Source: a virus. Taken from it: 64,000 nucleotides of DNA. The translations under genes were made by a program, and so were the position numbers. Location: the IMG/VR virus record IMGVR_UViG_3300007351_000277, positions 1 to 64,000 of that record; one strand, given 5' to 3'. Below the pieces are notes generated by a model. The model was not told where the DNA came from and searched no databases. It worked only from the letters and a program-made list of their open reading frames with translations. Positions 6,200 to 57,372 of this stretch are shown in pieces (within the stretch, counting starts at the first letter, position 1; each line of letters starts with the position of its first letter).

Positions 6200-9100
6200 T
6201 TGGATATCTTTGACATTCTTGAGAGTTGGGGTGAGTCCTTTAATAGGGCTCTCGATTGGGGCGAGGATGATCCTCGCCTTCACGATATCCCGACCTATAC
6301 GCCACGGGATATGGGCTATGATGGCACGCCCGAAACCGATCTCAATACTGTAAGTACACAGGACCTGTACCCTCGGGACTTCACCCCCTTCAGTGACTTT
6401 CTGTCCCAGTTAGCACCCGAGCCTGAGCCACTACCTGAACTTGAGCCAGAGTGGGTGCCCCCACAGGAAGCAGCACCCGAGCCTGTGCCTGAAATCAAGA
6501 TACCTGACTACCGGCCGTTTTCTCAGGAACCTACGGACCTTGGCGAGAAATTGTACCGTAGCATCATGAGTGGCTTCGGGGACTTCCTTGCCACATCAGC
6601 CTCAGCATCTGATCTGTTCCGTAAGGTCGTTCCGTTGCCGGAAGCACCACAGAAGCAGTTGGCCAATGCGGTGTTGGAACGCCTGGGGTTTGCACCGTTG
6701 GTCTCACAGGAATCCGTAGATATCGACGTAGCTGAGAAAACACAGGAACTGGGGGAGACCTTACGAGAAGAAAACTACGTTGAGCCTACTGAATGGACGG
6801 GATGGGAGTCACTAGCGGACCCCGAGTTTCTGGCAACCACGGGTGCCCGTAGTCTTGCTTTCGCGGCGCCCCTGATGGCTGCCAGCACCGTCGCGGCGCT
6901 AACAGCCCCGCTGTGGGTGCCAGCTGGACTTCCTGCTGGTGGCGCGGCTGCGGTATCGGTGTTGGGTGCGGTAGTGGCACCACGAGTCTTCGAGTCGCTG
7001 CTGGAAGCTGGTGGTACGTATGAGGAATCCTTGGCGCGCGGTATGAGCGATGATGAGGCTGTAGAAGCAGGAAAGAAGACCTTCATTGCCAACATGCCAT
7101 TGAGCGCACCGGATGCACTGCAGATGCTGTTGACGTTCCCCGGACTATTCAAGGCTGTACCGTTGCAGGCACGCAAGGCTGTGGTGACGAATCTCATGGG
7201 CCAGTTCGGGCAGAAGGGCGTAGGTGCTGCTAAGCTGCTGGGCGTGGCGGGTTCTGAGGCACTTGAGGAAGTAGCACAGGAAGCTATTGGCAAATGGTCG
7301 CTTGGGGACCCGGTGCAGTGGGATAAAGAGATGGAACAGGCAGCGGGCATTGGTGCGTTGCTGGGCGGTGGCATGTATGGTGGGGGCACTGCTGCACAGC
7401 GTCTTGTTAGCCAGGGTGCGCCACCGGTGGGGCTAAGCATCGAGGACGTAACCCGTGTGGACCCTAGCGAAGCGCAAAGGCAATGGAAGTCATGGCGTGC
7501 GATGATGGAGCGTGAAAATAAAGAATTTGATGTGTGGTCTTTTGGTGGGGAAGCGCCAAAACGATATCGTCCCCAAGAAACAGCACAGCTAACTCAGGAA
7601 CAGCACGAACGAGCAAGGGATACTTGGCGTAATGCGCTCATGTCAGATTTGCTGGGCGGGAAGACGGTACCAGAAAGTACAAAAGCAGAGTACATGAAGG
7701 CGCGACAGAAGCTAGAGTTTGAGGGGCGTTCCGGTAAGCCTGACAAGTCTATGAGGGAAGATTGGGGCGACCAGTATGACGAGATGGTAGATCGGGCCAA
7801 GGAATATGGTCTACCTGTGCGTGGCAAGGCTGCTCGTGCAGAGGAAGTGGCATCCCCCGTAACCACAGTTGAGGCGCCAGCGTCCTCACCCGTTCCCGAT
7901 GTTGCTGCTGGCCAGATGCCACGCTCGCCTGACTTGGCAGCGATGGAAGCAGAGACGGTGGCTAAGCAGCCTTGGGAGATGACGAGAGATGAGTGGGGCC
8001 TGAAAACAAACACACGTAAGGTTAGGTTCCAGAAAGCAAGCACAAAGGATGATGTTGTTGAGGTCTCCCCGTGGTTAGCCCTATCTAATCTGCGTGTGGG
8101 CGAGTCGTTCACTATTGGTCGAGACAAGTCTTTTACAGTCAAGTCCATTACCGATAAGACACTGACTCTTGTTGATGATAAAGGGAAGCAGTTGCGATTG
8201 GATGGATTGCCCGGCAGTCCTCGCGTCAACAGCTTCCTTCGTGATGTAGAGGACGAACTATCTATGGCCAGAACGACTCAATCGTACGAGTCAATATTCC
8301 GTCTCAATACAAAGCCCACGCCTAAGCATCCACTTCTGGTTGCACTTGAACGTGATCCGGTAATACAACACAGGGCGTTGGTAGTGCAGGCAATACGTGA
8401 AGGCAAGCCTGTTCCCCCCGAAGTGCTGGCTGACTACCCCGACCTGGCAGCGCAGTATGGCAAGGCAGAGACGGTCACGCCTACCGAGCCAGTTGCGCCC
8501 CAGCCAGAGCCAACCGTGACGCCAGCAGTCGAGACGCAGGCTGCGGAACTTCTGGACGTGACCCCCGAAGTCGCAGCAGGGGAAGAGGTGGAAGCGACAG
8601 GTGCTGCACCATTGGCACACAAGTATTGGCCGGTATGGGAACCAGTTCCTGGGCGCAAACCGTGGCGCATTCGAGACATGGAAACGGGTGAAAATATTAG
8701 GAACAAGAGCGGGAATGTGCTTGCCTTTGAGAGTGACGAGAAGGCATCCGAGCATCGCGACAAGATTGAGGCTACGTGGCGCAAGCAGCAGGGAATTGAT
8801 ATCCCGACAAACGAGCCACTGCCTGAATATGCCGAGTGGCAGAAGATGCAGCAGGCTGCTGGTGAGCCAGTCCCCACCGGAACAGCCCCAGAAGTAACCA
8901 GCGCAATTCCCGAAGGTGGCCAGCCTACTTCAGTCCAATTGGCTGCAGCAAGCGAGGCGCGCCCTGCGCCTGACTTGACACCAGAGCCTATAACGCGGCA
9001 AGAGCCTGTGGGTACGATTGATTCTGGTCAAGCTACGACCCGACCGATGGCAGAAGATGTTTCGTTGCCAGTGGACCTGCAGGGTGCCAAGCCTACATAC

Positions 9101-12100
9101 CGTTATGGCGACACGCAGTTTGACATAACGTTTGAGTCAGATGTCGATAAGGCACTTTACATCGTGCAAGACGCTGGGAAAAGCAAGTCGGATGCTAAGT
9201 ACATGACGTATTTGCGTGAGCGATTTTCCGGCCTTGACGATACTGCGATTCGGGACATGGGACGTACTCTTCGGGATAGCGTGATCAAGCCAATTGCGCA
9301 AGAGGCGCGCAAGACGGATGTGTCCGAACTGACGGTGCCACGCACCTATGCTGCTGAGCCTGTCTCGCCACCTATCATCGAGCCTGCCCCGACCTTGCCC
9401 TCGGTAGAAGAGGCAATGCCAGAGACGGTGACCGAGCCCGTGCCAACAGAAGTGACGCAGCCTGTACCTGAACTACCACAAGAACCAACGCCAGAGGAAC
9501 GCAAGGCGGCAAGGGATGCCCTGTTTGAGGAAGATACTGCTGCAGCTGGTAAGCCAGACGCACCGGCGGATTACTATGCTAAGGCGCTGGATTGGGCCAA
9601 GGCCGATGAGGACGCAACACCATTCCTGCCTAGACTGGTTAGTGCCTATCCCAACCTGAGCGATAAGCAGGTAGCGGATATCGTTAGAGAGAAGCAGGTC
9701 ATTAACAACGTGCCAGCGATGGACGTTACGCAGAAAGCGGGACGTGGGCGAAGGATCACGCAGACGCCAGCAAAGATCAACGACCCCCAGCCAGTGTTGA
9801 CCAAGGTGGACATTGACAATGCGCAGGAGACGGTAGACAATGCAGCCCCCTTTGGTAATCGGACCCATATTACGGCAGGGCTGGACGCTACCCTGATAGC
9901 GCCTAGCAAGCCATTGCTTACCAGGGTACGGGACTTCTTCTGGAACCTGAATGAAAAGTTCTTCTGGCAGGACACGTGGCTGAGCGAGCTTGAGAAAAAG
10001 GGAAAGCGAAGCCAGAAGGACCTTGCCCTTATCAATCTGGACCTTATTCCCCAGTCTGCTCTCGATATGGCTGCGGATATGGCATCGAAAGGCGTGGTGG
10101 ACGCTGGAAAGATCGCCAAGGCGTTTCCTCAACTGATTCCCCAGCAGGTCGATGCGCTGGTACAGCACTTCACAGTGAAATTGCCAGCAGAAGCGGTTGC
10201 CCGACGGACCGTGCAGCGTGGTGCAGCCAACGCTGCTGAGCGCTATCTGTCCAAGGTTGGTGGCTATATCGAACTGCTGAAAAACATACCGACGGATATT
10301 CGGGACGCACTGGATGTGTACCTGATCGCAATGGACCAAGTGGACAAGGCTGCCATCAAAAACAATCCCGACCGAAACTGGTCCTGGGGTACGGACCCCG
10401 CGCTTATCGAAAAGACCATCGACGAGCTCATCATGGGCGTGCCCGAAAGAACCGCGCAGACGATCCTGGCTCAATTGGAACCGATCCTGGGAAGTGATAT
10501 CTTTCGCCAGATGGACCAACGGGCGCTGATTGCCAAAGTAGGAAAGCCTCTTGGTGCTGACGGACTGGCAGAGGTCAAGAGGCTGGCAAACCAGCTATAC
10601 CGAATGAAGAACGAAATGCTGGAACTGAAGTACGAGACTGGTCTTATTACCAAAGAGCAGTACGATTTCTTCCATGACAACTTCCCTCACTATTCACCCA
10701 TACGGATTACCAACTACCTCAAGCAAGCGTCTGAGGGGAATCCCAAGGGGGTTACGGTTAAGAGCAATCTGATCCAGCATCTGACCGACGAGGGTACGCA
10801 GAAATCCCAAATGAGTGCGCTACAGGCATATTCCGAGATGGTACACCAGACCTTTAGTCTGGTGATGAGAAACCGAACGGCACGTGAGATAGCACGGCTG
10901 CGCTTTATGCCTGGTACGGAAGCGATAGTCAAGGAAGTTCCCATCGAGTATCAAGTGCAGGAAGGTACCAAAGAAGCCGAGTTCTACGTATTCGAGAATG
11001 GCATACGCAAGAAGATGCTGGTAATACCCGAGTGGGCCAAGGCTATTCGGATGGACGACTATGTCTTGTCGGGCGGGATGGCTACATTGGCGAAGTGGCT
11101 TGTTAGTCCCCTCAAGTGGGGCGCTACCGGTGCCAACGTGTTGTTTCTGCAGCGCAACATGATTGGCGACATGCTGACCGGATTTGTGCGTGAGGGGGTC
11201 ACGCCACGCCAGTACATGCAGGCAGTTCGGGATGTGTTTGGTAAGCAGGTGTACCTGACACAATTCGAGTTGGGCGGTGGTGGCCTTGGTGGGCATGGCT
11301 ACCACAAGTTTGACAGTATCCCTGACGAAGCCAGGGCGTTCAAGCAGTCAGTTACCAGGCTCAGTACCAAGGAAGCTCTAGCCAAGTTCATACAGGATAT
11401 GGTGACGCTCAAGCCGGTGCAGGATATAGGGCACAAGGTCGAGATGCTAACCAGAGTAGCAACGTTCATGAAGCGCTTGACCCCCGAGCAGCGAGCAGCT
11501 ATCGAGAATGGTACCATGAAAATACTGGACATTCCGGTCGAGGCTGTGGTGGCGGGCAAACGGGTGACGATGGACTTCCAGCGTGGGGGTACGGGAGCTT
11601 TGGTTCTCAACCGTTTCATACCATACTTCAACGTAGCATTTCAGGCACCGGTGCAGATCGTTCGCACCTTTACCGAGCAATCAGGACCAGTAGGCGCAAC
11701 GCTTCGGTTGGCAGCAATCGTCGGATTACCGGTTCTGCTGGCTGAGATATGGAACAGTATGTTCGATGAGTACGAGGACGTGCCTCAGTACGTGAAGAAC
11801 CGGTCTGCCATCATCATGATGCCTTCACCGGGGAAGGACCGTTTTGGTAAGGCTGTACCGGCCTACGTCGAGATACCGTTGCGTGAGTGGGCACCAGTGG
11901 GGATGACGATTCGAGAGTCTCTACGGTCCATACGTAAAGAAAACCCGGAAATGTGGCGTGATATGGTGGCGCAGACTCTGCGTGACCAACTGGGCGACGA
12001 GCGGTTTGCGCCAGTGGATAGGCTGGCCGAGGGCTGGCGCAACATGATTCCACCGGACCGAACCGAAACAGCCCTGAATGCTATCAGCGCCATCAATCCT

Positions 12101-14449
12101 GTTCAAGGTAGCTCGCTGGATAGTGCCATTATTGGTATCCTGCCGCCTATCTTGGGAACGTATTTTGAGATTCTTCTGAATAGGGACCTGTATCGTAACC
12201 GAGAGATCGTGCCGGATGATCGGAAGTATCTGCCACGTCCCGAGCAGTACACGCAGTGGACAGGTGAGTTTGCGATCCTGATGGGCAAGCAACTCAATAT
12301 GTCGCCAGCGCAGATTGAGCATCTTGTGATGGGCAACCTCGCTGGTGTGGGCAAGCAGATACTGGCTGGGGCTAACCTGGCAACACAACAACTTGTGCCT
12401 GTCAACAAGGGAACGGTGCAACCACGTGCTGGGGATTCTATATTTGCCTACTGGGTGCCAAAGGACGGGGACCCTGAATACTACACAAAGGACAAGGTTC
12501 CCGAAATAAGAATTAAGGCTGAGGCTGGTGAGGGTGCCTTGTACGTCGTATCGGCCAAGGACCGAGACGAAGCTGTATCCAAGGTCTACTCTAAGGACTT
12601 CCTGCATACCTACGGGGTAGAGACGCCTATCACGACCTTCCCGATAGTCGGTGGTATGGTAGGGGTGTTGTACCGAACCGGTGGGGGTGAGATTGACCGA
12701 CGTGCAAAAGAGGCAGTAGATCAAGAGATGGGTGAGGGTACGGTTGCGGAAACCCGACGTGGATGGGAATCTGCACGTCCCAAGCTGGATGAACTGAAAG
12801 CTGAGCAGATCAAGCTGGACGATAAGCTGTCAGCAGCGCTTATTAGCGTAGATGAATGGAAGCAGGAACGTCGTTTTCTGCAGACAAAGAGGGCTGCAAC
12901 TCTTGAAGCCATACAAGCAGTGCTGAGAAGGGCTGCGCTAACGGGTGATAAGGCTGCAATGTACAAGGAACTGCACGCCACCGTTGGTCGGGCGATTCCC
13001 GATAGGCGAGATCGAATCGAGGCGATGACGGCACTCTACATGGCGATAGAGCCAGGGGTACGTGATGACAATGAGCCGGACCTGGATGCTTTCTATGTTG
13101 CACGCAACGAGTTTCTGACGTCACTACCTGCTGCTGATCAGGAACTGGTCAAGGCGCAGTTGCGCAAGAATGCGACCCCTACTGAGTTGCGCTACTACGA
13201 GGCGCAGGACCTGTACCGACAGTATCTGCAGATACCACGTTACAAAGGGGTGGCTAGTGCCGAGAAAGCAGACGCTATGTACCAAGCACGTCGTAGGCTT
13301 GAGGAAATCGAGAACACCCTTCCGACCAATACCCCTAATCGTCGCTTGGTGGCACTGGACGCCTTGTCCAAAGTAGACGCCAGTGTTGCGTCGTTGGCCC
13401 GTGACGCATTCTTGCAGCAGGACAACTTGGATCGACGGAAGTTCTGGGATGATCATCCCTTGATGACCGAGTGGTTTGGGAAGGGCGTAACCGATAAGCC
13501 TGGACTCGCTACTGTATCGGTAGCTACCACGCTAGCGGGTCTACCCAAAGATACAGGGATCGTGCAGGCCAACGTCTACAATCAGTACCGGAACGAACTA
13601 GCTCGCCAAGAGAACGAATACTATGGGGGTGGCAGCGAGCAGGTACAGCAGCTAGTAACTGACTATGGTGCCCTGAGTACCGAACAACGAACGGCGTATC
13701 GGAAGGCGAATCCCGAAGAATACAAACTGGTTCAGTCAGAGTACGATAGGCGAGCCAAGTTGCTGGAACGTCCTGAGTTTGCTCTGTATGCTCGCTTTAT
13801 TCAGTTCCGTGACAGCATGGGGGATTACGATACCCGTAAGTTGGTGGAAAAGTTTGGAAGCAAGGATGCCAAAGAGATATTCCTGAGTGCGCTGATATCG
13901 GGTGACATTAAGCCAACGTGGGCTACGGGTACTGTGGCCTCGACGGAAGGTGCAGCAAAGCCTGCTACCACGACGACCACACGTACCACAACGACGACAG
14001 CAAAGGCTACCACTGCGTCGACGACAAAGACGACGACAACAGCGCCCAAGGTAGCCACAGCCAAGGCACCACTTACGCGTGCCGATCTGGTGGGTCAACG
14101 TACAGGGACGACTCGGCGTGACATATTCTTCACGTCGGATGGTAAGTTACGTCGGGACGTGGTGGTACGACCCGGTCTTCTGCCCGTGGCGCCACCAAAA
14201 CCAGGACGGTTTATAGCACCTGTACGAGAAGGCGCACCCTTCGACGAGACGCCGTATACCGGACCGGATAAGGAATGGGCCAAGGATTTTGAAAAGATAC
14301 ATGGTCGTCGTCCGACCTGGCTTGATTACGAGGATAGGCTTTGGTCGCTTGACTTCCTAGCTAAAAACAAAAGGCCACCCACTGACGCAGAATGGCGCGA
14401 GCAATACGGACTAAAATATCAACAGATACCGGTTAGGCTAAATGTCTGA
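6200..14449 (+). CDS. giant 2749-aa virion-associated (internal/ejection or polyvalent-type) protein
   Basis: Uninterrupted 8.25 kb ORF between portal and scaffold. It has an N-terminal acidic/Pro-rich region, a hydrophobic Ala/Gly-rich membrane-like block (SLAFAAPLMAASTVAALTAPLWVPAGLPAGGAAAVSVLGAVVAP) and several PE/PT-rich linkers. Near the C terminus there is a Thr-rich tract and then a ~60-aa module shared with the next gene. No catalytic motif recognised. Confidence 0.75.
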   Translation: MDIFDILESWGESFNRALDWGEDDPRLHDIPTYTPRDMGYDGTPETDLNTVSTQDLYPRDFTPFSDFLSQLAPEPEPLPELEPEWVPPQEAAPEPVPEIKIPDYRPFSQEPTDLGEKLYRSIMSGFGDFLATSASASDLFRKVVPLPEAPQKQLANAVLERLGFAPLVSQESVDIDVAEKTQELGETLREENYVEPTEWTGWESLADPEFLATTGARSLAFAAPLMAASTVAALTAPLWVPAGLPAGGAAAVSVLGAVVAPRVFESLLEAGGTYEESLARGMSDDEAVEAGKKTFIANMPLSAPDALQMLLTFPGLFKAVPLQARKAVVTNLMGQFGQKGVGAAKLLGVAGSEALEEVAQEAIGKWSLGDPVQWDKEMEQAAGIGALLGGGMYGGGTAAQRLVSQGAPPVGLSIEDVTRVDPSEAQRQWKSWRAMMERENKEFDVWSFGGEAPKRYRPQETAQLTQEQHERARDTWRNALMSDLLGGKTVPESTKAEYMKARQKLEFEGRSGKPDKSMREDWGDQYDEMVDRAKEYGLPVRGKAARAEEVASPVTTVEAPASSPVPDVAAGQMPRSPDLAAMEAETVAKQPWEMTRDEWGLKTNTRKVRFQKASTKDDVVEVSPWLALSNLRVGESFTIGRDKSFTVKSITDKTLTLVDDKGKQLRLDGLPGSPRVNSFLRDVEDELSMARTTQSYESIFRLNTKPTPKHPLLVALERDPVIQHRALVVQAIREGKPVPPEVLADYPDLAAQYGKAETVTPTEPVAPQPEPTVTPAVETQAAELLDVTPEVAAGEEVEATGAAPLAHKYWPVWEPVPGRKPWRIRDMETGENIRNKSGNVLAFESDEKASEHRDKIEATWRKQQGIDIPTNEPLPEYAEWQKMQQAAGEPVPTGTAPEVTSAIPEGGQPTSVQLAAASEARPAPDLTPEPITRQEPVGTIDSGQATTRPMAEDVSLPVDLQGAKPTYRYGDTQFDITFESDVDKALYIVQDAGKSKSDAKYMTYLRERFSGLDDTAIRDMGRTLRDSVIKPIAQEARKTDVSELTVPRTYAAEPVSPPIIEPAPTLPSVEEAMPETVTEPVPTEVTQPVPELPQEPTPEERKAARDALFEEDTAAAGKPDAPADYYAKALDWAKADEDATPFLPRLVSAYPNLSDKQVADIVREKQVINNVPAMDVTQKAGRGRRITQTPAKINDPQPVLTKVDIDNAQETVDNAAPFGNRTHITAGLDATLIAPSKPLLTRVRDFFWNLNEKFFWQDTWLSELEKKGKRSQKDLALINLDLIPQSALDMAADMASKGVVDAGKIAKAFPQLIPQQVDALVQHFTVKLPAEAVARRTVQRGAANAAERYLSKVGGYIELLKNIPTDIRDALDVYLIAMDQVDKAAIKNNPDRNWSWGTDPALIEKTIDELIMGVPERTAQTILAQLEPILGSDIFRQMDQRALIAKVGKPLGADGLAEVKRLANQLYRMKNEMLELKYETGLITKEQYDFFHDNFPHYSPIRITNYLKQASEGNPKGVTVKSNLIQHLTDEGTQKSQMSALQAYSEMVHQTFSLVMRNRTAREIARLRFMPGTEAIVKEVPIEYQVQEGTKEAEFYVFENGIRKKMLVIPEWAKAIRMDDYVLSGGMATLAKWLVSPLKWGATGANVLFLQRNMIGDMLTGFVREGVTPRQYMQAVRDVFGKQVYLTQFELGGGGLGGHGYHKFDSIPDEARAFKQSVTRLSTKEALAKFIQDMVTLKPVQDIGHKVEMLTRVATFMKRLTPEQRAAIENGTMKILDIPVEAVVAGKRVTMDFQRGGTGALVLNRFIPYFNVAFQAPVQIVRTFTEQSGPVGATLRLAAIVGLPVLLAEIWNSMFDEYEDVPQYVKNRSAIIMMPSPGKDRFGKAVPAYVEIPLREWAPVGMTIRESLRSIRKENPEMWRDMVAQTLRDQLGDERFAPVDRLAEGWRNMIPPDRTETALNAISAINPVQGSSLDSAIIGILPPILGTYFEILLNRDLYRNREIVPDDRKYLPRPEQYTQWTGEFAILMGKQLNMSPAQIEHLVMGNLAGVGKQILAGANLATQQLVPVNKGTVQPRAGDSIFAYWVPKDGDPEYYTKDKVPEIRIKAEAGEGALYVVSAKDRDEAVSKVYSKDFLHTYGVETPITTFPIVGGMVGVLYRTGGGEIDRRAKEAVDQEMGEGTVAETRRGWESARPKLDELKAEQIKLDDKLSAALISVDEWKQERRFLQTKRAATLEAIQAVLRRAALTGDKAAMYKELHATVGRAIPDRRDRIEAMTALYMAIEPGVRDDNEPDLDAFYVARNEFLTSLPAADQELVKAQLRKNATPTELRYYEAQDLYRQYLQIPRYKGVASAEKADAMYQARRRLEEIENTLPTNTPNRRLVALDALSKVDASVASLARDAFLQQDNLDRRKFWDDHPLMTEWFGKGVTDKPGLATVSVATTLAGLPKDTGIVQANVYNQYRNELARQENEYYGGGSEQVQQLVTDYGALSTEQRTAYRKANPEEYKLVQSEYDRRAKLLERPEFALYARFIQFRDSMGDYDTRKLVEKFGSKDAKEIFLSALISGDIKPTWATGTVASTEGAAKPATTTTTRTTTTTAKATTASTTKTTTTAPKVATAKAPLTRADLVGQRTGTTRRDIFFTSDGKLRRDVVVRPGLLPVAPPKPGRFIAPVREGAPFDETPYTGPDKEWAKDFEKIHGRRPTWLDYEDRLWSLDFLAKNKRPPTDAEWREQYGLKYQQIPVRLNV

Positions 14450-17535: not shown

Positions 17536-17883
17536 ATGACTCTGCAGTCCTATGATGCTTTAACATCTGAACAGCGTGTTTACTACGATAGCCTGCTGCT
17601 GGACCGGGCAATCCCCAAACTGGCATTCGCCAACTATGGGGTGAAGCGTCCTATTCCCGCTAACATGGGTGATAGGATCAACTTCCGAAGGGTAGAGCTT
17701 ATCAGCGCTGCCCCCTCGTCCATCACGGCGTTGACCGAGGGCACAGCGGGCGCAAAGGCTACACCGTCTATCAGCAATCTGACCGCCACTGTTTCACAGT
17801 ACGGTCGGTGGATTGAAATAACGGACAAGCTAGAGGATCAGGCTATCGACCAGGTGCTTAGCGAGTACACAGCGATGTTGGGT
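17536..17883 (+). CDS. major capsid protein, exon 1 (116 codons)
   Basis: RBS AAGGAGGTG then ATG 17536. MTLQSYDALTSEQRVYYDSLLLDRAIPKLAFANYG...INFRRVELISAAP...VSQYGRWIEITDKLEDQAIDQVLSEYTAMLG has an HK97-fold capsid N-terminal pattern. The frame hits a stop 8 codons after GGT 17881-17883. Confidence 0.85.
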
Positions 17884-17941
17884 AGTTCCAGAAGTTTGCC
17901 CAACTAAAATCTCTTCTAGATAACGGGAACGGCTGAGATGC

Positions 17942-18406
17942 TTACCCGATGCAAGGTTCTTTGACAAGTGAATAGCGACCGTTGAGACGCCGCATCTCGA
18001 CAAAACATTCATATCGGAAGGCTCTTATTTGGGGGCTTAGTGGCATAATCTGGCCATTGGACTTGTGAGTCAAAGGGCCAAAGGAATCACGAAATCGCAG
18101 GGCCAATTCCAATTGGGCTTTCTTGATGATGATATAAGGCAACACGGCGTTGCATAGTTGATCAAAGAGGCGTCGCTCGACAATCCATTCGTATTTGGTT
18201 TTCCACCCCGAACGAGTTTCTCGTTTGTACTGTAAACCACCAAAAGTGGTTTGAAGCCAGTCAATCAGAATCTTATCGGTAGAGACCACGTAGATACGAA
18301 TACTATAGTCGGTCCTTGGATACTTCCCGCTACGGTAGATATTGATGCACCCTTCGCCATCAATGATACCAGCGAGATAGGCCAACTGGGAAACGGTCCA
18401 GCACAT
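17942..18406 (-). CDS. LAGLIDADG homing endonuclease, single-motif type
   Basis: Track ORF is 17942..18448. The motif LAYLAGIIDGEGCINIY lies near the N terminus. The start is probably ATG 18406 (MCWTVSQ) after AAAGGGG. Antisense to the capsid gene and intron. Confidence 0.85.
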   Translation of the reverse strand: MCWTVSQLAYLAGIIDGEGCINIYRSGKYPRTDYSIRIYVVSTDKILIDWLQTTFGGLQYKRETRSGWKTKYEWIVERRLFDQLCNAVLPYIIIKKAQLELALRFRDSFGPLTHKSNGQIMPLSPQIRAFRYECFVEMRRLNGRYSLVKEPCIG

Positions 18407-18438
18407 AAGATACACCCCTTTCATTGTGTCTGAGACTA

Positions 18439-18467
18439 AGTGTATCACTATAGTGTTAACTTGTCAA
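18439..18467 (-). promoter_or_regulatory. sigma70-like promoter for HEG-1 (TTGACA-N17-TACACT on the - strand)
   Basis: The reverse complement reads TTGACAagttaacactatagtgaTACACT. The -35 is formed by the 3' strand of the stem that closes the HEG-1 loop. Confidence 0.5.
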
Positions 18468-18580
18468 TACCGGCAGCAGAGACTAAACGAAGAGACACCG
18501 AAAGGTGAAGCGATAGTCCGATCTTATGGGAAATGAACCGTAAGAGCCAGGCAGAAATGGCCTGGACGCACCTTAACAAT

Positions 18581-19351
18581 CTACTTGACTTTATATAGCA
18601 TCGATGGTGCCCAATAGGGTGCCATGATGTCCATCAACCTACGTGCATCGGAACCATAGAAGGTAACTCGATAACCCCCCTCACGCAAAAAGCGTAGGTG
18701 GGAATTCAGCCCATATGTTTTCCGAAACCAGTCTTGGATTGAATGCTGGACAGATTCGGGCCAAAGGCCAGTACAAAAGTAAAAGCCTTTGTCAAAGGTC
18801 CCAGACCCATCATCCATAAACCAGACTGCTAAAGAACGTGGGGTCAATTGCTGAAGTGCCTTTAGTGTGGGGACCTTGCCATCATCACACATAAACAACT
18901 TGAATGGCGTAAAGAGGTCAGAATGCACACAGGTGCGAAAACGCACGGAGCCAGCATTGATAATCACCCTGCCCTGACAGACAGTAGTTCGAGGAGCGTA
19001 ATGCTCAAGTTTGCCAGGAAAAGGCTGTAGTTGGCTATGAAGCCACAGAACATACCCTTCCTGATTGGCGCCATGCTCAATTGATAAGGATGGCCAGCGA
19101 CACCGAGTTGGGATGGCCAGGGAGCCATCACCCATCAGTTTTCCATATACGATTTCGAGTTGTTGCTGTGAGAATGGGGTTTGCTGGGCAGTAGTAAGGG
19201 GATAGCCCCTGCAGGGAATGGCATAGCGATGCAAGTAGGTGTAAACATCACCGTACTTGCGAGTGAGTGCCTTAGTTGACAATCCGAGATCAACATACTC
19301 GTGATACAACTCTTCCTTGGTCGGTGTTAATGTGGTTTTTGGTCGGCCCAT
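18581..19351 (-). CDS. LAGLIDADG homing endonuclease, double-motif type
   Basis: Track ORF is 18581..19372. The start is probably ATG 19351 (MGRPKTT) after GAGGAAG. Two motifs are present: YGKLMGDGSLAI and AVWFMDDGSGT. Antisense to the intron. Confidence 0.85.
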   Translation of the reverse strand: MGRPKTTLTPTKEELYHEYVDLGLSTKALTRKYGDVYTYLHRYAIPCRGYPLTTAQQTPFSQQQLEIVYGKLMGDGSLAIPTRCRWPSLSIEHGANQEGYVLWLHSQLQPFPGKLEHYAPRTTVCQGRVIINAGSVRFRTCVHSDLFTPFKLFMCDDGKVPTLKALQQLTPRSLAVWFMDDGSGTFDKGFYFCTGLWPESVQHSIQDWFRKTYGLNSHLRFLREGGYRVTFYGSDARRLMDIMAPYWAPSMLYKVK

Positions 19352-19371
19352 ATCTTCCTCTATTTTCGCCA

Positions 19372-19400
19372 AGCATAGCAGAAAATGAGGAGTAAGTCAA
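19372..19400 (-). promoter_or_regulatory. sigma70-like promoter for HEG-2 (TTGACT-N17-TATGCT on the - strand)
   Basis: The reverse complement reads TTGACTtactcctcattttctgcTATGCT. The -35 again lies in the 3' strand of the loop-closing stem. Confidence 0.5.
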
Positions 19401-19426
19401 GTAGGTTGCGGTGAGGTAACAGATTG

Positions 19427-19948
19427 GATCAGGCTGGGGTAGATGTGGACACAGTGGTACGTGATGTACTAACTGCGGGCACGTCTATCCAGTTTGCCTC
19501 AACCGCTATCTCTCGTGGCCAGGTGGGGTCGGGCATGTTGTTCAACTCGGCAGAGATCAGGGAAGTTCTACGGACTATGCGTCGAAACAACGCAAATCCT
19601 GTGGAGGACGATAAGTATATCGCTTTCGTTCATCCAGACACCTGGTCGGACCTGTTGAGCGATACCGACTTCAAGAGCTTCGGGCAGCACGCACAGCCGC
19701 GTGATACCACGAACGTTCTGTCCCATGCTAACACAGTGGATTACCTTGGTATCCGGTTCGTCATGACGAGTCGGGCCACGATTCATGCGTCGCTGGGTCT
19801 GTCTGGCGCTGATGTTTACTCGACCGTGGTGGTGGGTGACCAGGCTTATGGTGTTTCCGAACTGGAGACTCAGAACCTGCGAATCTACTTCAAGCCACGG
19901 GGATCGGGTGGAACCGGTGACCCAATAGACCAGATCAGCACGCTGGGT
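19427..19948 (+). CDS. major capsid protein, exon 2 (174 codons)
   Basis: DQAGVDVDTVVRDVLTAGTSIQFAS...YIAFVHPDTWSDLLSD...GIRFVMTSRA...VYSTVVVGDQAYGVSEL...KPRGSGGTGDPIDQISTLG. There is no plausible start or RBS of its own. It continues exon 1 in phase 0. Confidence 0.85.
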
Positions 19949-20196
19949 AAAGTGATAGTAGTAATACTTGTAGCCCAGCTAAAACCTGTCAAATTCAGGG
20001 AAAGTCCCTATAGGGGGATAATCCTGAGCCAAGGCCAGCTTTATGGCTGGCAAGGTGCAACGACTAGACGGCAGGGACTCGGTTTACTGAACTGAGTCAA
20101 GGTATAGTCTGAACTCACGAGTAATCGTGAGAGGTGGCAGAAATGGCCACCCGCCTATTCAGGTGGATGCCTGTTAGGTCCATAAGTAACAGAACG
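19949..20196 (+). mobile_element. group I intron 2 (248 nt, no ORF)
   Basis: P1: exon GCTGGGT (19942-19948) pairs with guide GCCCAGC (19973-19979). Core strings are GTCAAATTCAGGGAAAGTCCC (19988-), GAGCCAAGG, GACTAGACGGCA (20062-20073) and AAGGTATAGTC. These closely resemble my recollection of the Azoarcus/Anabaena tRNA group I introns. It ends GTAACAGAACG. Confidence 0.85.
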
Positions 20197-20283
20197 TACA
20201 AGTGTGCATTTGCTGCACGTATCCTCAACGACAACTTCATGTTGCGTGTTGAGCACGTGACCACAGCAAAGCAGGCGGCATAA
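20197..20283 (+). CDS. major capsid protein, exon 3 (28 codons plus stop)
   Basis: Hand translation gives YKCAFAARILNDNFMLRVEHVTTAKQAA*. There is no start codon. It joins exon 2 in phase 0 after the omega-G at 20196. The spliced product is 318 aa. Confidence 0.7.
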   Translation, partial: YKCAFAARILNDNFMLRVEHVTTAKQAA

Positions 20284-20292
20284 GCGATTAGT

Positions 20293-20316
20293 AGGGGTCG
20301 GGGTGACTCGACCCCT
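20293..20316 (+). terminator. 8-bp GC-rich hairpin after the capsid stop (AGGGGTCG / CGACCCCT)
   Basis: Read directly. The T-run is weak or absent, so function is uncertain. Confidence 0.35.
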
Positions 20317-20344
20317 TAACAAAACAGGAAAGGGACATACTCAT

Positions 20345-46156: not shown

Positions 46157-46177
46157 TAGTGTGCCTGCAACATCCTA

Positions 46178-46206
46178 TTGACTCGTGGCGCCAGGCATGA
46201 TATATT
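46178..46206 (+). promoter_or_regulatory. sigma70-type promoter P-Y1 (TTGACT-N17-TATATT)
   Basis: Read directly. The upstream box CTGCAACATCCTA is duplicated at the second promoter. Confidence 0.65.
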
Positions 46207-46210
46207 GATG

Positions 46211-46350
46211 TTGGCAACCCCCGAGGGAAACTAATAAATAATCCGGGTCAGACCCTCTTGGTTGCTAACCCCCCTACCCGCTTCGATGAGTAGGGGCTTG
46301 GTCAAAACAAAGCAGGCACATGTGATGCATAATGTGCCTGCTTTGTTTTT
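46211..46350 (+). ncRNA. structured small RNA 1 (Y-RNA-like candidate)
   Basis: 5' TTGGCAACC (46211-46219) pairs with GGTTGCTAA (46260-46268). A second hairpin is CCCCTAC...GTAGGGG (46271-46296), followed by an intrinsic terminator. No ORF. Paralogous to RNA 2. Confidence 0.6.
46310..46350 (+). terminator. rho-independent terminator
   Basis: AAGCAGGCACAT...ATGTGCCTGCTT forms a 12-bp stem followed by TGTTTTT. Confidence 0.75.
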
Positions 46351-46366
46351 GCTCTGCAACATACTG

Positions 46367-46395
46367 TTGACTTATGGCATTAGGCATGATATATT
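46367..46395 (+). promoter_or_regulatory. sigma70-type promoter P-Y2 (TTGACT-N17-TATATT)
   Basis: Near-identical copy of P-Y1, including GGCATGATATATTGAT. Confidence 0.65.
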
Positions 46396-46399
46396 GATA

Positions 46400-46600
46400 T
46401 TGGCAACTGAGGCTGGAGGACGGGTCGAGTGTCGAGCAGCGCTTGTTATGCAATCGTCACGTCCCAAGTGCTGCTCAATGGACGTAGTGACGGACACGCA
46501 GAAGCTTGGTCCCACCATCTTGGTTGCTAATCCCCCTACTCACCTCGGTGGGTAGGCGCTTGGCGACTGTCGTAGCTTCAAAGGGGCTACGCCTAGTAAG
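46400..46600 (+). ncRNA. structured small RNA 2 (Y-RNA-like candidate; 3' end uncertain, may be the rsr leader)
   Basis: TTGGCAAC (46400-46407) pairs with GGTTGCTAA (46522-46530). Internal long-range stems are GAGCAGCGCTTG/CAAGTGCTGCTC and CGTCACGTCC/GGACGTAGTGACG. A hairpin CCTACTCACC/GGTGGGTAGG follows, then a T-loop-like hairpin CGTAGC-TTCAAAGGG-GCTACG. Confidence 0.5.
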
Positions 46601-57135: not shown

Positions 57136-57324
57136 CTACCGCTCGGCCAGCAGCGCCTCGACCTCGGCGCGGGGGATGCCCACGGGACCGTGCTTGGCAT
57201 AGAAAGGCTTTTGGGGACGCGGGTGCAGGCGACCGTCCCGAATAAGACGGTATACCGTCTTGATGGTACAGTTCAGCATGGCTGCTGTGCCTTTGATGGT
57301 AAGGTCGTCCGTGTTGTCCTGCAT
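57136..57324 (-). CDS. excisionase/MerR-type HTH DNA-binding protein (62 aa)
   Basis: This is the C-terminal third of track ORF 57136..57705. MQDNTDDLTIKGTAAMLNCTIKTVYRLIRDGRLHP... starts at ATG 57324 downstream of its own promoter. The upstream part of the track ORF is antisense to the ParB-MTase gene. Confidence 0.6.
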   Translation of the reverse strand: MQDNTDDLTIKGTAAMLNCTIKTVYRLIRDGRLHPRPQKPFYAKHGPVGIPRAEVEALLAER

Positions 57325-57330
57325 AATTCT

Positions 57331-57359
57331 AGTATACCACAGTATTGCCAGTATATCAA
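57331..57359 (-). promoter_or_regulatory. sigma70-like promoter (TTGATA-N17-TATACT on the - strand) for the HTH gene
   Basis: The reverse complement reads TTGATAtactggcaatactgtggTATACT. Confidence 0.5.
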
Positions 57360-57372
57360 TGTTATTCCCTGC

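Follow-up and report, generated by a model that had tools for sequence, protein, structure and literature searches.

Endonucleases encoded in bacterial and phage introns are usually described as sense passengers, expressed from or within the host transcript, and keeping ribosomes off the folding ribozyme is a known problem for sense-oriented intron open reading frames (ORFs). A different arrangement is described here for the window, by which is meant the whole analysed stretch of 64,000 nucleotides (nt), positions 1 to 64,000 of the IMG/VR virus record IMGVR_UViG_3300007351_000277. Intron 1 of a major-capsid gene in this window is probably a mobile group I intron that carries two homing endonuclease genes (HEGs), HEG1 and HEG2, as antisense, self-promoted cassettes in stem-closed loops of the ribozyme. 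Parts of this arrangement have been described elsewhere. Antisense HEGs with their own promoters are established in nuclear ribosomal DNA (rDNA) group I introns, such as those of Didymium, namely I-DirII and I-DsqI (PMC3073962, PMC9548176). The mycobacteriophage LittleE has a capsid-gene intron, spliced according to reverse transcription PCR, in which an I-CreI-like LAGLIDADG gene lies 'on the bottom strand' (Pope et al. 2013, PMC3706429), and GenBank record JF937101 places gene 14 of LittleE on the minus strand inside the joined gene 13. The intron HEGs of phage T4 have internal promoters though they are sense-oriented (PMC2988022). In fungal mitochondria, one group I intron may hold several LAGLIDADG ORFs, and the authors of that study knew of no earlier reports of introns with multiple HEGs (Selles Vidal et al. 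2025, PMC11835236). Orientation is not addressed in the 2014 review of bacterial group I introns, and no phage or bacterial intron in which two HEGs are antisense and have separate promoters was found described in the literature searched, the coverage of which was incomplete. An earlier note on the window, in which intron HEGs were said to be normally sense-oriented and expressed from the host transcript, overstates the novelty of the antisense orientation, for which I-DirII, I-DsqI and the antisense LAGLIDADG gene of the LittleE capsid intron are precedents.

The ribozyme and its two endonuclease genes

The capsid gene lies on the plus strand in three exons (17536-17883, 116 codons, ending in TTGGGT; 19427-19948, 174 codons; 20197-20283, 28 codons plus stop), the joined product of which has 318 amino acids. 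More than 200 relatives of this protein were found, many of them named 'N4-gp56 family major capsid protein', and the best homologues are uninterrupted proteins of 317-320 amino acids with 55-71% identity. Both junctions, MLG/DQAG(VD) and STLG/YKCA(FAA) (the slash marks the junction), align without gaps to uninterrupted homologues (49-71% identity), exon 1 running gap-free into exon 2 across ...EYTAMLG/DQAG..., and intron 1 is therefore placed at 17884-19426 and intron 2 at 19949-20196. As judged by this comparison, exact excision restores the capsid reading frame. The predicted ligated junctions read ...ATGTTGGGT/GATCAGGCT... for exons 1 and 2, equivalent to the intron-less allele, and ...CTGGGT/TACAAG... 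for exons 2 and 3. The GC content is 47% in the intron and 54% in the exons. The best explanation for the whole is that the window derives from an uncultured tailed phage and that intron 1 is a mobile group I intron in its major-capsid gene.

Intron 1 comprises 1543 nt on the plus strand and its last base is G (...GATTG). Its P1 pairs TTGGGT (17878-17883) with GCCCAA (17898-17903), the last exon U making a U.G pair, and this helix covaries with the exon in related introns: CTCGGT/GCCGAG in L049, GTCAACATT/GGTGTTGAC in L056, CTCAGT/GCTGAG in L059, and likewise in L053. The core is split into three segments, which are joined by two long-range stems, the P6 extension and P9.2. The 5' core (17910-17960, plus strand), in which a block of 33 nt is identical in L049, holds the 5' strand of P3 (TCTCTTC, 17910-17916), P4 (CGGG, 17924-17927, with CCCG, 17945-17948), P5 (GGC/GCU) and the base of P6. 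The central catalytic core (18468-18576, plus strand) comprises J6/7, P7 (GACTA, 18481-18485, with TAGTC, 18514-18518), P3' (GAAGAGA, 18489-18495), P8 (CACC-GAAA-GGTG, 18496-18507), P9 (18522-18545) and P9.1 (18547-18565, with the loop CAGAAATG). The 3' arm of P9.2 and the intron 3' tail (...GGTAACAGATTG, common to the whole intron family) occupy 19394-19426 of the same strand. When intron 1 was folded with both ORF loops replaced by GAAA, the minimum-energy fold contained P1, P3 enclosing P4-P6, and P8. A hand-written structure of P3, P4, P5, P6, P7, P8, P9 and P9.1, with the P3/P7 pseudoknot, was tested for covariation in only four close sequences, in which P4 never varies: 97% of the cells were paired and 15 of 44 pairs had compensatory changes, a result as high in none of 500 shuffles, and slid controls were 35-48% paired. 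The distant introns L050_II and L053 were excluded from this count, as the MAFFT alignment that included them misaligned P1 and P9.

Both endonuclease genes are on the minus strand. HEG1 (17942-18406) encodes a single-motif LAGLIDADG protein of 154 amino acids with the motif LAGIIDGEG, and HEG2 (18581-19351) a double-motif LAGLIDADG_2 protein of 256 amino acids with LMGDGSL, FMDDGSG and an N-terminal extension. HEG1 matches Pfam LAGLIDADG_1 (PF00961) at 25.0 bits (cut-off 23.1), has 34 relatives in the protein collection, and its PDB matches to I-MsoI, I-AniI and I-CvuI are weak (E = 3e-4 to 7e-3 for I-MsoI and I-CvuI). Residues D16, G17 and E18 of its motif are nearly invariant (at least 90%) across a 10-sequence alignment, and later conserved positions are also kept. 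Its C-terminus is about 8 amino acids longer than in its nearest relatives and reaches into the P6 and P4' strands, the stop codon and the last codons overlapping P4' and P6 of the ribozyme. HEG2 matches LAGLIDADG_2 (PF03161) at 77.8 bits (cut-off 25), and its second motif, WFMDDGSG, aligns with WFMDDGG of I-SceI. It has one close relative, P0122 (51% identity), in which both motifs are kept, and the second motif is also present in a fragment in L056. By these matches HEG1 belongs to the homodimeric I-CreI/I-MsoI type and HEG2 to the monomeric I-SceI type. The start codons of both genes agree with the N-termini of their homologues, and the alignments, in which both genes are intact with conserved motifs, rule out that they are decayed pseudogenes, a possibility left open by the earlier note.

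Both HEGs are inside the intron, HEG1 between the strands of P6 and HEG2 in P9.2, where P9.1 is on one side of it and the 3' tail on the other. The earlier note had claimed two different LAGLIDADG genes antisense to the intron, each in a loop closed by a perfect stem of 9 base pairs, with a catalytic-core segment between them; the genes and their loops were confirmed, as was every other observation of the note that could be checked, the segment (18468-18580) holds P7, P3', P8, P9 and P9.1, and both stems could be extended. The first, TTGACAAGT (17961-17969) with ACTTGTCAA (18459-18467), extends to 12 nt at 92% as the P6 extension (17961-17972/18456-18467); its 5' arm, which closes the HEG1 loop on the plus strand, encodes the last HEG1 codons (SLVK) on the minus strand, and the 3' arm was located by an inverted-repeat search. 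The second, CTACTTGAC (18581-18589) with GTCAAGTAG (19396-19404), extends to 15 nt at 93% as P9.2 (18577-18591/19394-19408); its 5' arm closes the HEG2 loop on the plus strand and contains the HEG2 stop codon TAG (18583-18581, minus strand), and an outer helix pairs CACC (18569-18572) with GGTG (19410-19413). Stem length proves little here, because the region is rich in inverted repeats of such length: there are 25 pairs of at least 8 nt in these 1.7 kb, and a 9-bp repeat alone is not significant. The two stems are credible from their placement and from compensatory changes in relatives. Around the HEG2 homologue of L049 the stem is AACAACTGATT/AATCAGTTGTT, its outer part changed on both sides relative to the window, and the outer helix CACC/GGTG is replaced by CCATG/CATGG; around the HEG1 homologue of L050 the stem is TTAACAACTTAG/CTAGGTTGTCAA, the inner part kept and the outer part replaced on both sides. 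That the arms are terminal inverted repeats of a transposon was rejected, since no transposase is present and the arms covary as RNA pairs and continue P6 and P9.2. The structural claims, the placement of both HEGs within the ribozyme among them, can be taken as close to certain.

Promoter-like signals on the minus strand

Upstream of each HEG, on the minus strand, lies a set of signals of the sigma70 type. For HEG1 (18407-18467) these are a -35 box TTGACA (18467-18462) in the 3' stem arm, a 17-nt spacer, a TG-extended -10 box TACACT (18444-18439) and the ribosome-binding site AAAGGGG; for HEG2 (19352-19400) they are TTGACT (19400-19395), again in the 3' stem arm, a 17-nt spacer, a TG-extended TATGCT (19377-19372) and the ribosome-binding site GAGGA. 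Transcription is predicted to start near 18432 and 19365, respectively, and the distance from promoter-like site to ATG is 32 nt for HEG1 and 20 nt for HEG2, with a Shine-Dalgarno sequence after each site. Both strands of the 64 kb (128 kb in all) were scanned for sites with at least 9 of 12 matches, a 17-nt spacer and TG. Five such sites were found against 0.53 +/- 0.66 in shuffles. Two of them precede the HEG start codons by 20-32 nt and match the sigma70 consensus at 10/12 and 9/12 positions, both with TG.

The remaining three sites of the window also stand in plausible promoter contexts, two in tandem at 46.2-46.4 kb and one before a minus-strand ORF of the helix-turn-helix kind. The tandem pair (46160-46400, plus strand) consists of two identical TTGACT-N17-TATATT sites with TG (starts 46178 and 46367), separated by about 190 nt within a tandemly repeated unit. 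A conserved 'cttggttgctaaYccccctac' element follows each of the two sites, which may be early promoters for short structured RNAs. The third site, TTGATA-17-TATACT with TG (start 57359), is upstream of a small helix-turn-helix-like ORF (...TIKTVYRLIRDGRLHP...; about 57136-57365, minus strand) that runs opposite to its plus-strand neighbours and may encode a regulator.

The promoter reading, put forward in the earlier note from the two window sites, is strengthened by diverged relatives in which the hexamers and the 17-nt spacing are conserved and the spacers differ. The HEG2 homologue of L049 has identical hexamers, TG and 17-nt spacing with a spacer unrelated to that of the window, and in P0124, the HEG1 homologue of L050, the site is TTGACA-17-TATACT and the spacer is once more unrelated. 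Elsewhere in L050 the near-consensus sites TTGACA-17-TAGAAT, TTGACT-17-TATAAT and TTGATC-16-TACAAT precede another three antisense LAGLIDADG genes, and TGTACA-17-TATGAT and TGTACA-17-TATAGT, both with TG, are found in L067 and L068. In every resolved case the -10 box is in the loop, and the closing stem has the -35 box in or beside its 3' arm. Of the two lines of argument, rarity in the window and conservation, the second weighs more, and promoter function of both window sites is likely.

Read on the minus strand, each cassette begins with a -35 box in one stem arm, from which a 17-nt spacer leads to the TG-extended -10 box; the ribosome-binding site and the LAGLIDADG ORF follow, and the stop or last codons run into the other arm. 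As regards transcription and its timing, cleavage and homing, and why the orientation was selected, we infer the following course. The sigma70 RNA polymerase of the host would transcribe both HEGs from the minus strand, independently of the late capsid transcript, and the enzymes would cut intron-less or HEG-less alleles in co-infecting relatives, repair then copying the element in. The antisense position of the ORFs would mean that no ribosomes translate within the intron of the pre-mRNA, so that the ribozyme could fold and splice undisturbed, and antisense expression would uncouple endonuclease dosage from the very strong late transcription of the capsid gene.

Several observations weigh against this account. 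In L053 the HEG1 homologue has a degenerate promoter. No intrinsic terminator was predicted after HEG1 or HEG2 on the minus strand, where the antisense copies of P8, P9 and P9.1 are hairpins without a clear U-run, and the HEG transcripts may therefore run antisense into exon 1. Rfam RF00028 gave no match on intron 1 (17884-19426) at the E-value and gathering thresholds, and ORF-poor relatives reached 22-35 bits where the gathering score is 50. The model is split by the two ORF inserts and so misses intron 1, whose group I membership therefore rests on the hand-built helices and the covariation. A wider survey in IMG/VR used a 17-nt P9.1 hairpin common to part of the family, with 128 occurrences in IMG/VR loci. 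Within 1.8 kb of the hairpin sites there are 29 distinct LAGLIDADG-type ORFs, 23 sense and 6 antisense, a predominance from which it follows that the antisense orientation is not needed for function. Strong sigma70-type matches precede one of the six antisense and seven of the 23 sense ORFs, judged by the sigma70 consensus irrespective of host and with rough start estimates. On these last counts a general rule that an antisense HEG has a sigma70 promoter is not supported for IMG/VR introns with the P9.1 hairpin. Such a rule fits the window and the relatives nearest to it and not the family at large, and the antisense orientation is a recurrent minority state. Several surveyed introns apparently hold two LAGLIDADG-type ORFs, and in L184 (IMG/VR, about position 769) the P9.1 hairpin is preceded by a sense LAGLIDADG ORF and followed by an antisense one, which would make a pair of mixed orientation.

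It could be supposed that the hexamers are by-products of the RNA stems, and that the genes are read through from elsewhere or are silent passengers on the way to decay. The -35 boxes do lie in stem arms constrained by pairing, and TTGACA and TGTCAA are reverse complements, so that a stem can create the hexamer; most antisense HEGs of the IMG/VR sample, in addition, have no strong match. The -10 boxes, however, lie in loops and not in stems, and yet they are kept at exactly 17 nt while the spacers diverge completely. Both window sites have the TG extension and a ribosome-binding site at the proper distance, chance would yield about a tenth as many sites of such quality as are observed, all five of the window are in promoter-like contexts, and no decay is seen in the ORFs. 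Of the two stem arms in L050, the one that contains the -35 box stays TTGACA, whereas the other varies (TTAACA, with an A.C mismatch). An origin of the signals as mere products of pairing is accordingly unlikely.

A further element was observed in the HEG1-family cassettes. A palindrome, TTAGTCTnAGACTAA, lies directly after the -10 box, over the predicted transcription start, and is conserved in four relatives (L050, 3967-3985; L053, 3953-3995; L067 and L068, upstream of 3501); in the window it is degenerate (TAGTCTCAGACAC, about 18425-18438). By analogy with I-TevI, this palindrome (TTAGTCTnAGACTAA; TTAGTCTCAGACTAA) could serve the homodimeric enzyme as an operator through which it represses its own gene, or it could form a hairpin at the 5' end of the RNA.

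Relatives and the probable stepwise gain of endonuclease genes

Related introns were sought in JGI metagenomes with a 20-mer from P4-P5, which gave three real relatives (L056, L059 and L062) and four chance matches. The exact 20-mer had no match in IMG/VR and, in reference genomes, one chance match in a high-GC metagenome-assembled genome, identical to the chance matches L057 and L061. The loci L049, L062, L056, L059, L045 and L047 have introns in homologues of the window's capsid gene. L049, the contig of the HEG2 homologue, carries the same intron as the window, and in both L049 and L062 the intron is at the window's site and holds an antisense HEG2, P6 being a short GAAA hairpin without HEG1 (GATGCAAGCAACCGAAAGGTGTGCAGCAGC in L049). 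Introns of the same family are found in L056 at about residue 49, with an antisense HEG2-like ORF, and in L059 at about residue 286, with a sense single-motif ORF. In L045 and L047 the intron is at residue 116, which is the window's site, and holds a sense LAGLIDADG_2-type gene, a distant relative of HEG2 (E = 4e-12).

HEG1 relatives occur in other surroundings. L050 has a different major-head gene with two introns and two antisense LAGLIDADG ORFs in each, the HEG1 homologue P0124 being in P6 of the second; in L053 the homologue is likewise antisense and in P6. In L067, L068 and L071 it is antisense beside a fragment of a major-head gene (L067 and L071 match phrog_1357; the L068 fragment matched no family), and in L069 it is on the same strand as its neighbours. 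Taken together, HEG1 relatives are antisense next to major-head gene fragments in six of seven contexts. Those of cultured Streptomyces and Stenotrophomonas phages are free-standing, on the same strand as their neighbours, and were set aside as uninformative on orientation.

The earlier note had suggested that the two genes arrived by sequential invasions, and had proposed a survey for intron-less and single-HEG versions. Sequential invasion is supported by L049 and L062, whose intron, the same as that of the window and at its site, has HEG2 as its one endonuclease gene. Capsid homologues without an intron are common. The core of the window intron is 71-88% identical to HEG1-less introns and 56-66% to L050_II and L053, whereas the P6 flanks of the HEG1 cassette are 70% identical to L050_II and 37-48% to L049. 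Core and flanks thus point to different relatives, the core to HEG1-less introns and the flanks to a HEG1-bearing one, which fits a lateral gain of the HEG1 cassette together with its stem. HEG2 probably belongs to the intron lineage, and HEG1 was probably added later as a cassette with its P6 stem.

The capsid family is an intron hot-spot (L045, L046, L047, L048, L056, L059, L062 and the window), with at least six insertion sites, near residues 49, 91, 112, 116, 286 and 290, and with LAGLIDADG HEGs of single or double motif in either orientation. In L045 two introns are separated by an exon of about 23 codons. In L062 (minus-strand reading, oriented positions about 820-1075) an extra group I intron without an ORF ends 12 nt upstream of the next 5' splice site, leaving a 12-nt micro-exon, GACATGCTCGGT (DMLG), between two group I introns; the upstream intron is absent from L049.

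A homodimeric LAGLIDADG enzyme cuts at the centre of a pseudo-palindrome, and the palindrome of P6 would for that reason be a natural target for an enzyme of the HEG1 type. It is tentatively proposed, as a possibility that we hold to be less probable than not, that the HEG1-type unit is itself a mobile element, a parasite of the intron that homes into the palindromic DNA of the P6 hairpin in capsid-gene group I introns. The unit would comprise, with the same reserve, the closing stem, the sigma70 promoter, the start-site palindrome, the ORF and the stop codon in the other stem arm. If true, this proposal would explain why HEG1 relatives are always in P6 beside J6/7, antisense, at different sites and in at least three capsid gene families, why the window ribozyme is closest to HEG1-less introns and its cassette flanks resemble those of a distant HEG1-bearing intron, and how one intron could accumulate two endonuclease genes. 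The backward orientation and the early host-type promoter would then be an adaptation to life in the most heavily expressed late gene without disturbing its splicing.

According to another explanation, antisense RNA from the minus-strand promoters would pair with the capsid pre-mRNA and regulate splicing or late expression, as a timing device or an inhibitor. Both promoters do face the capsid transcript, read-through into exon 1 is possible given that no terminator is predicted, and the possibility of interference is taken seriously for the antisense HEGs of rDNA introns (PMC9548176). Against this, the conserved catalytic motifs of both intact ORFs indicate selection on the proteins, and the sense HEG of the same family at the same capsid site in L045 and L047 implies that the capsid gene does not need an antisense RNA; intron-less homologues are common, moreover, and nothing ties the arrangement to regulation. 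A regulatory purpose is on this evidence quite improbable, and the antisense interference with splicing or late expression raised in the earlier note is speculation. Hardly credible, finally, is the view that two free-standing endonuclease genes lie between separately translated capsid fragments without splicing: the absence of an Rfam group I match across 17884-19426 and the free-standing HEG1 relatives beside capsid genes in cultured phages, e.g. Stenotrophomonas phage StenR_269, would agree with it, but exons 1 and 2 have no stop or start signals of their own at the junction and together match the 317-320-amino-acid homologues without a gap, all group I hallmarks are present and covary, HEG1 lies between the P6 strands inside the ribozyme, which rules out ORFs placed between split capsid genes, and the closely related intron 2 scores 86 bits.

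Intron 2 (19949-20196, plus strand) is a group I intron of the same lineage without an ORF, with 86.3 bits to RF00028, P1 formed by CTGGGT/GCCCAG and P10 by TACAAG/CTTGTA. No close relatives of the locus were found in GenBank phages, the sole match, short and within intron 2, being to the terminase gene of Ralstonia phage BOESR1: the core (19980-20066) is 77% identical to OR367448.1 1541-1618, annotated as coding in the terminase large-subunit gene, which may hold an unannotated group I intron. Around the capsid locus nearly all long ORFs are on the plus strand, and genes for terminase, portal and a 2749-amino-acid polyvalent protein precede the capsid gene. The last of these (6200-14449, plus strand) has a 'large polyvalent protein associated domain 38' (LPD38) and is flanked by the portal region on one side and by the scaffold and capsid genes on the other. 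Close behind the stop codon of the capsid gene, ahead of its downstream neighbour, a weak PreQ1-riboswitch-like match (20288-20333; 23.9 bits) was rejected as below the gathering score of 39; it is more likely a chance match or a GC-rich hairpin (GGGGTCGGGGTGACTCGACCCC).

Comparison with known systems

The two-, one- and zero-endonuclease versions of one intron family in one capsid gene family form a natural series, which could be used to test how HEGs invade introns, how orientation affects splicing and homing, and whether an endonuclease targets the intron or the host gene. The practical gain is modest, namely two new candidate site-specific nucleases. For annotation the locus carries a warning: a phage capsid gene that seems to be in fragments, separated by ORFs of the opposite strand, can be intact and spliced.

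Among the systems already described, LittleE shares with the window the major-capsid gene, the intron of group I type and the opposite-strand, single-motif, I-CreI-like LAGLIDADG gene. Its gp14 is a distant homologue of HEG1 (30% identity over 73 amino acids, E = 6e-10), and a weak Rfam group I match lies upstream of it. LittleE differs in having one HEG instead of two, and in its capsid family, host and ribozyme sequence; no promoter has been described for gp14, and none was found upstream by the scan in this high-GC phage. I-DirII (in Dir.S956-2) and I-DsqI (in Dsq.L2066) are alike in that an antisense HEG lies in a peripheral loop (P9.2 in Dsq.L2066); its expression from an internal promoter, independent of the host transcript, has a likely counterpart in the window, and the question of antisense interference arises there too. 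Those systems are, however, eukaryotic, with an RNA polymerase II promoter, spliceosomal introns, polyadenylation, an enzyme of the His-Cys box family, an rRNA host gene and one HEG per intron.

The T4 introns resemble intron 1 as phage group I introns with a HEG in a peripheral loop; an intron-internal promoter that times the HEG apart from the host gene, and folding shielded from translation, would be further points in common. They differ in their sense orientation, their GIY-YIG and HNH enzymes and their middle or late T4 promoters, and translation is held back there by RNA hairpins. The fungal mitochondrial introns with several HEGs (PMC11835236) likewise mix single- and double-motif LAGLIDADG genes in one intron, but they are organellar, no strand or orientation is stated for them and no separate promoters are reported. 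The layout of the window, by comparison, recurs in uncultured phages, and an antisense HEG in a capsid intron has been noted once in a cultured phage, LittleE. The conflict between ribosome and ribozyme would be answered differently by this element and its relatives, with backward cassettes that carry host-type promoters in ribozyme loops and whose ends are the RNA stem that closes the loop.

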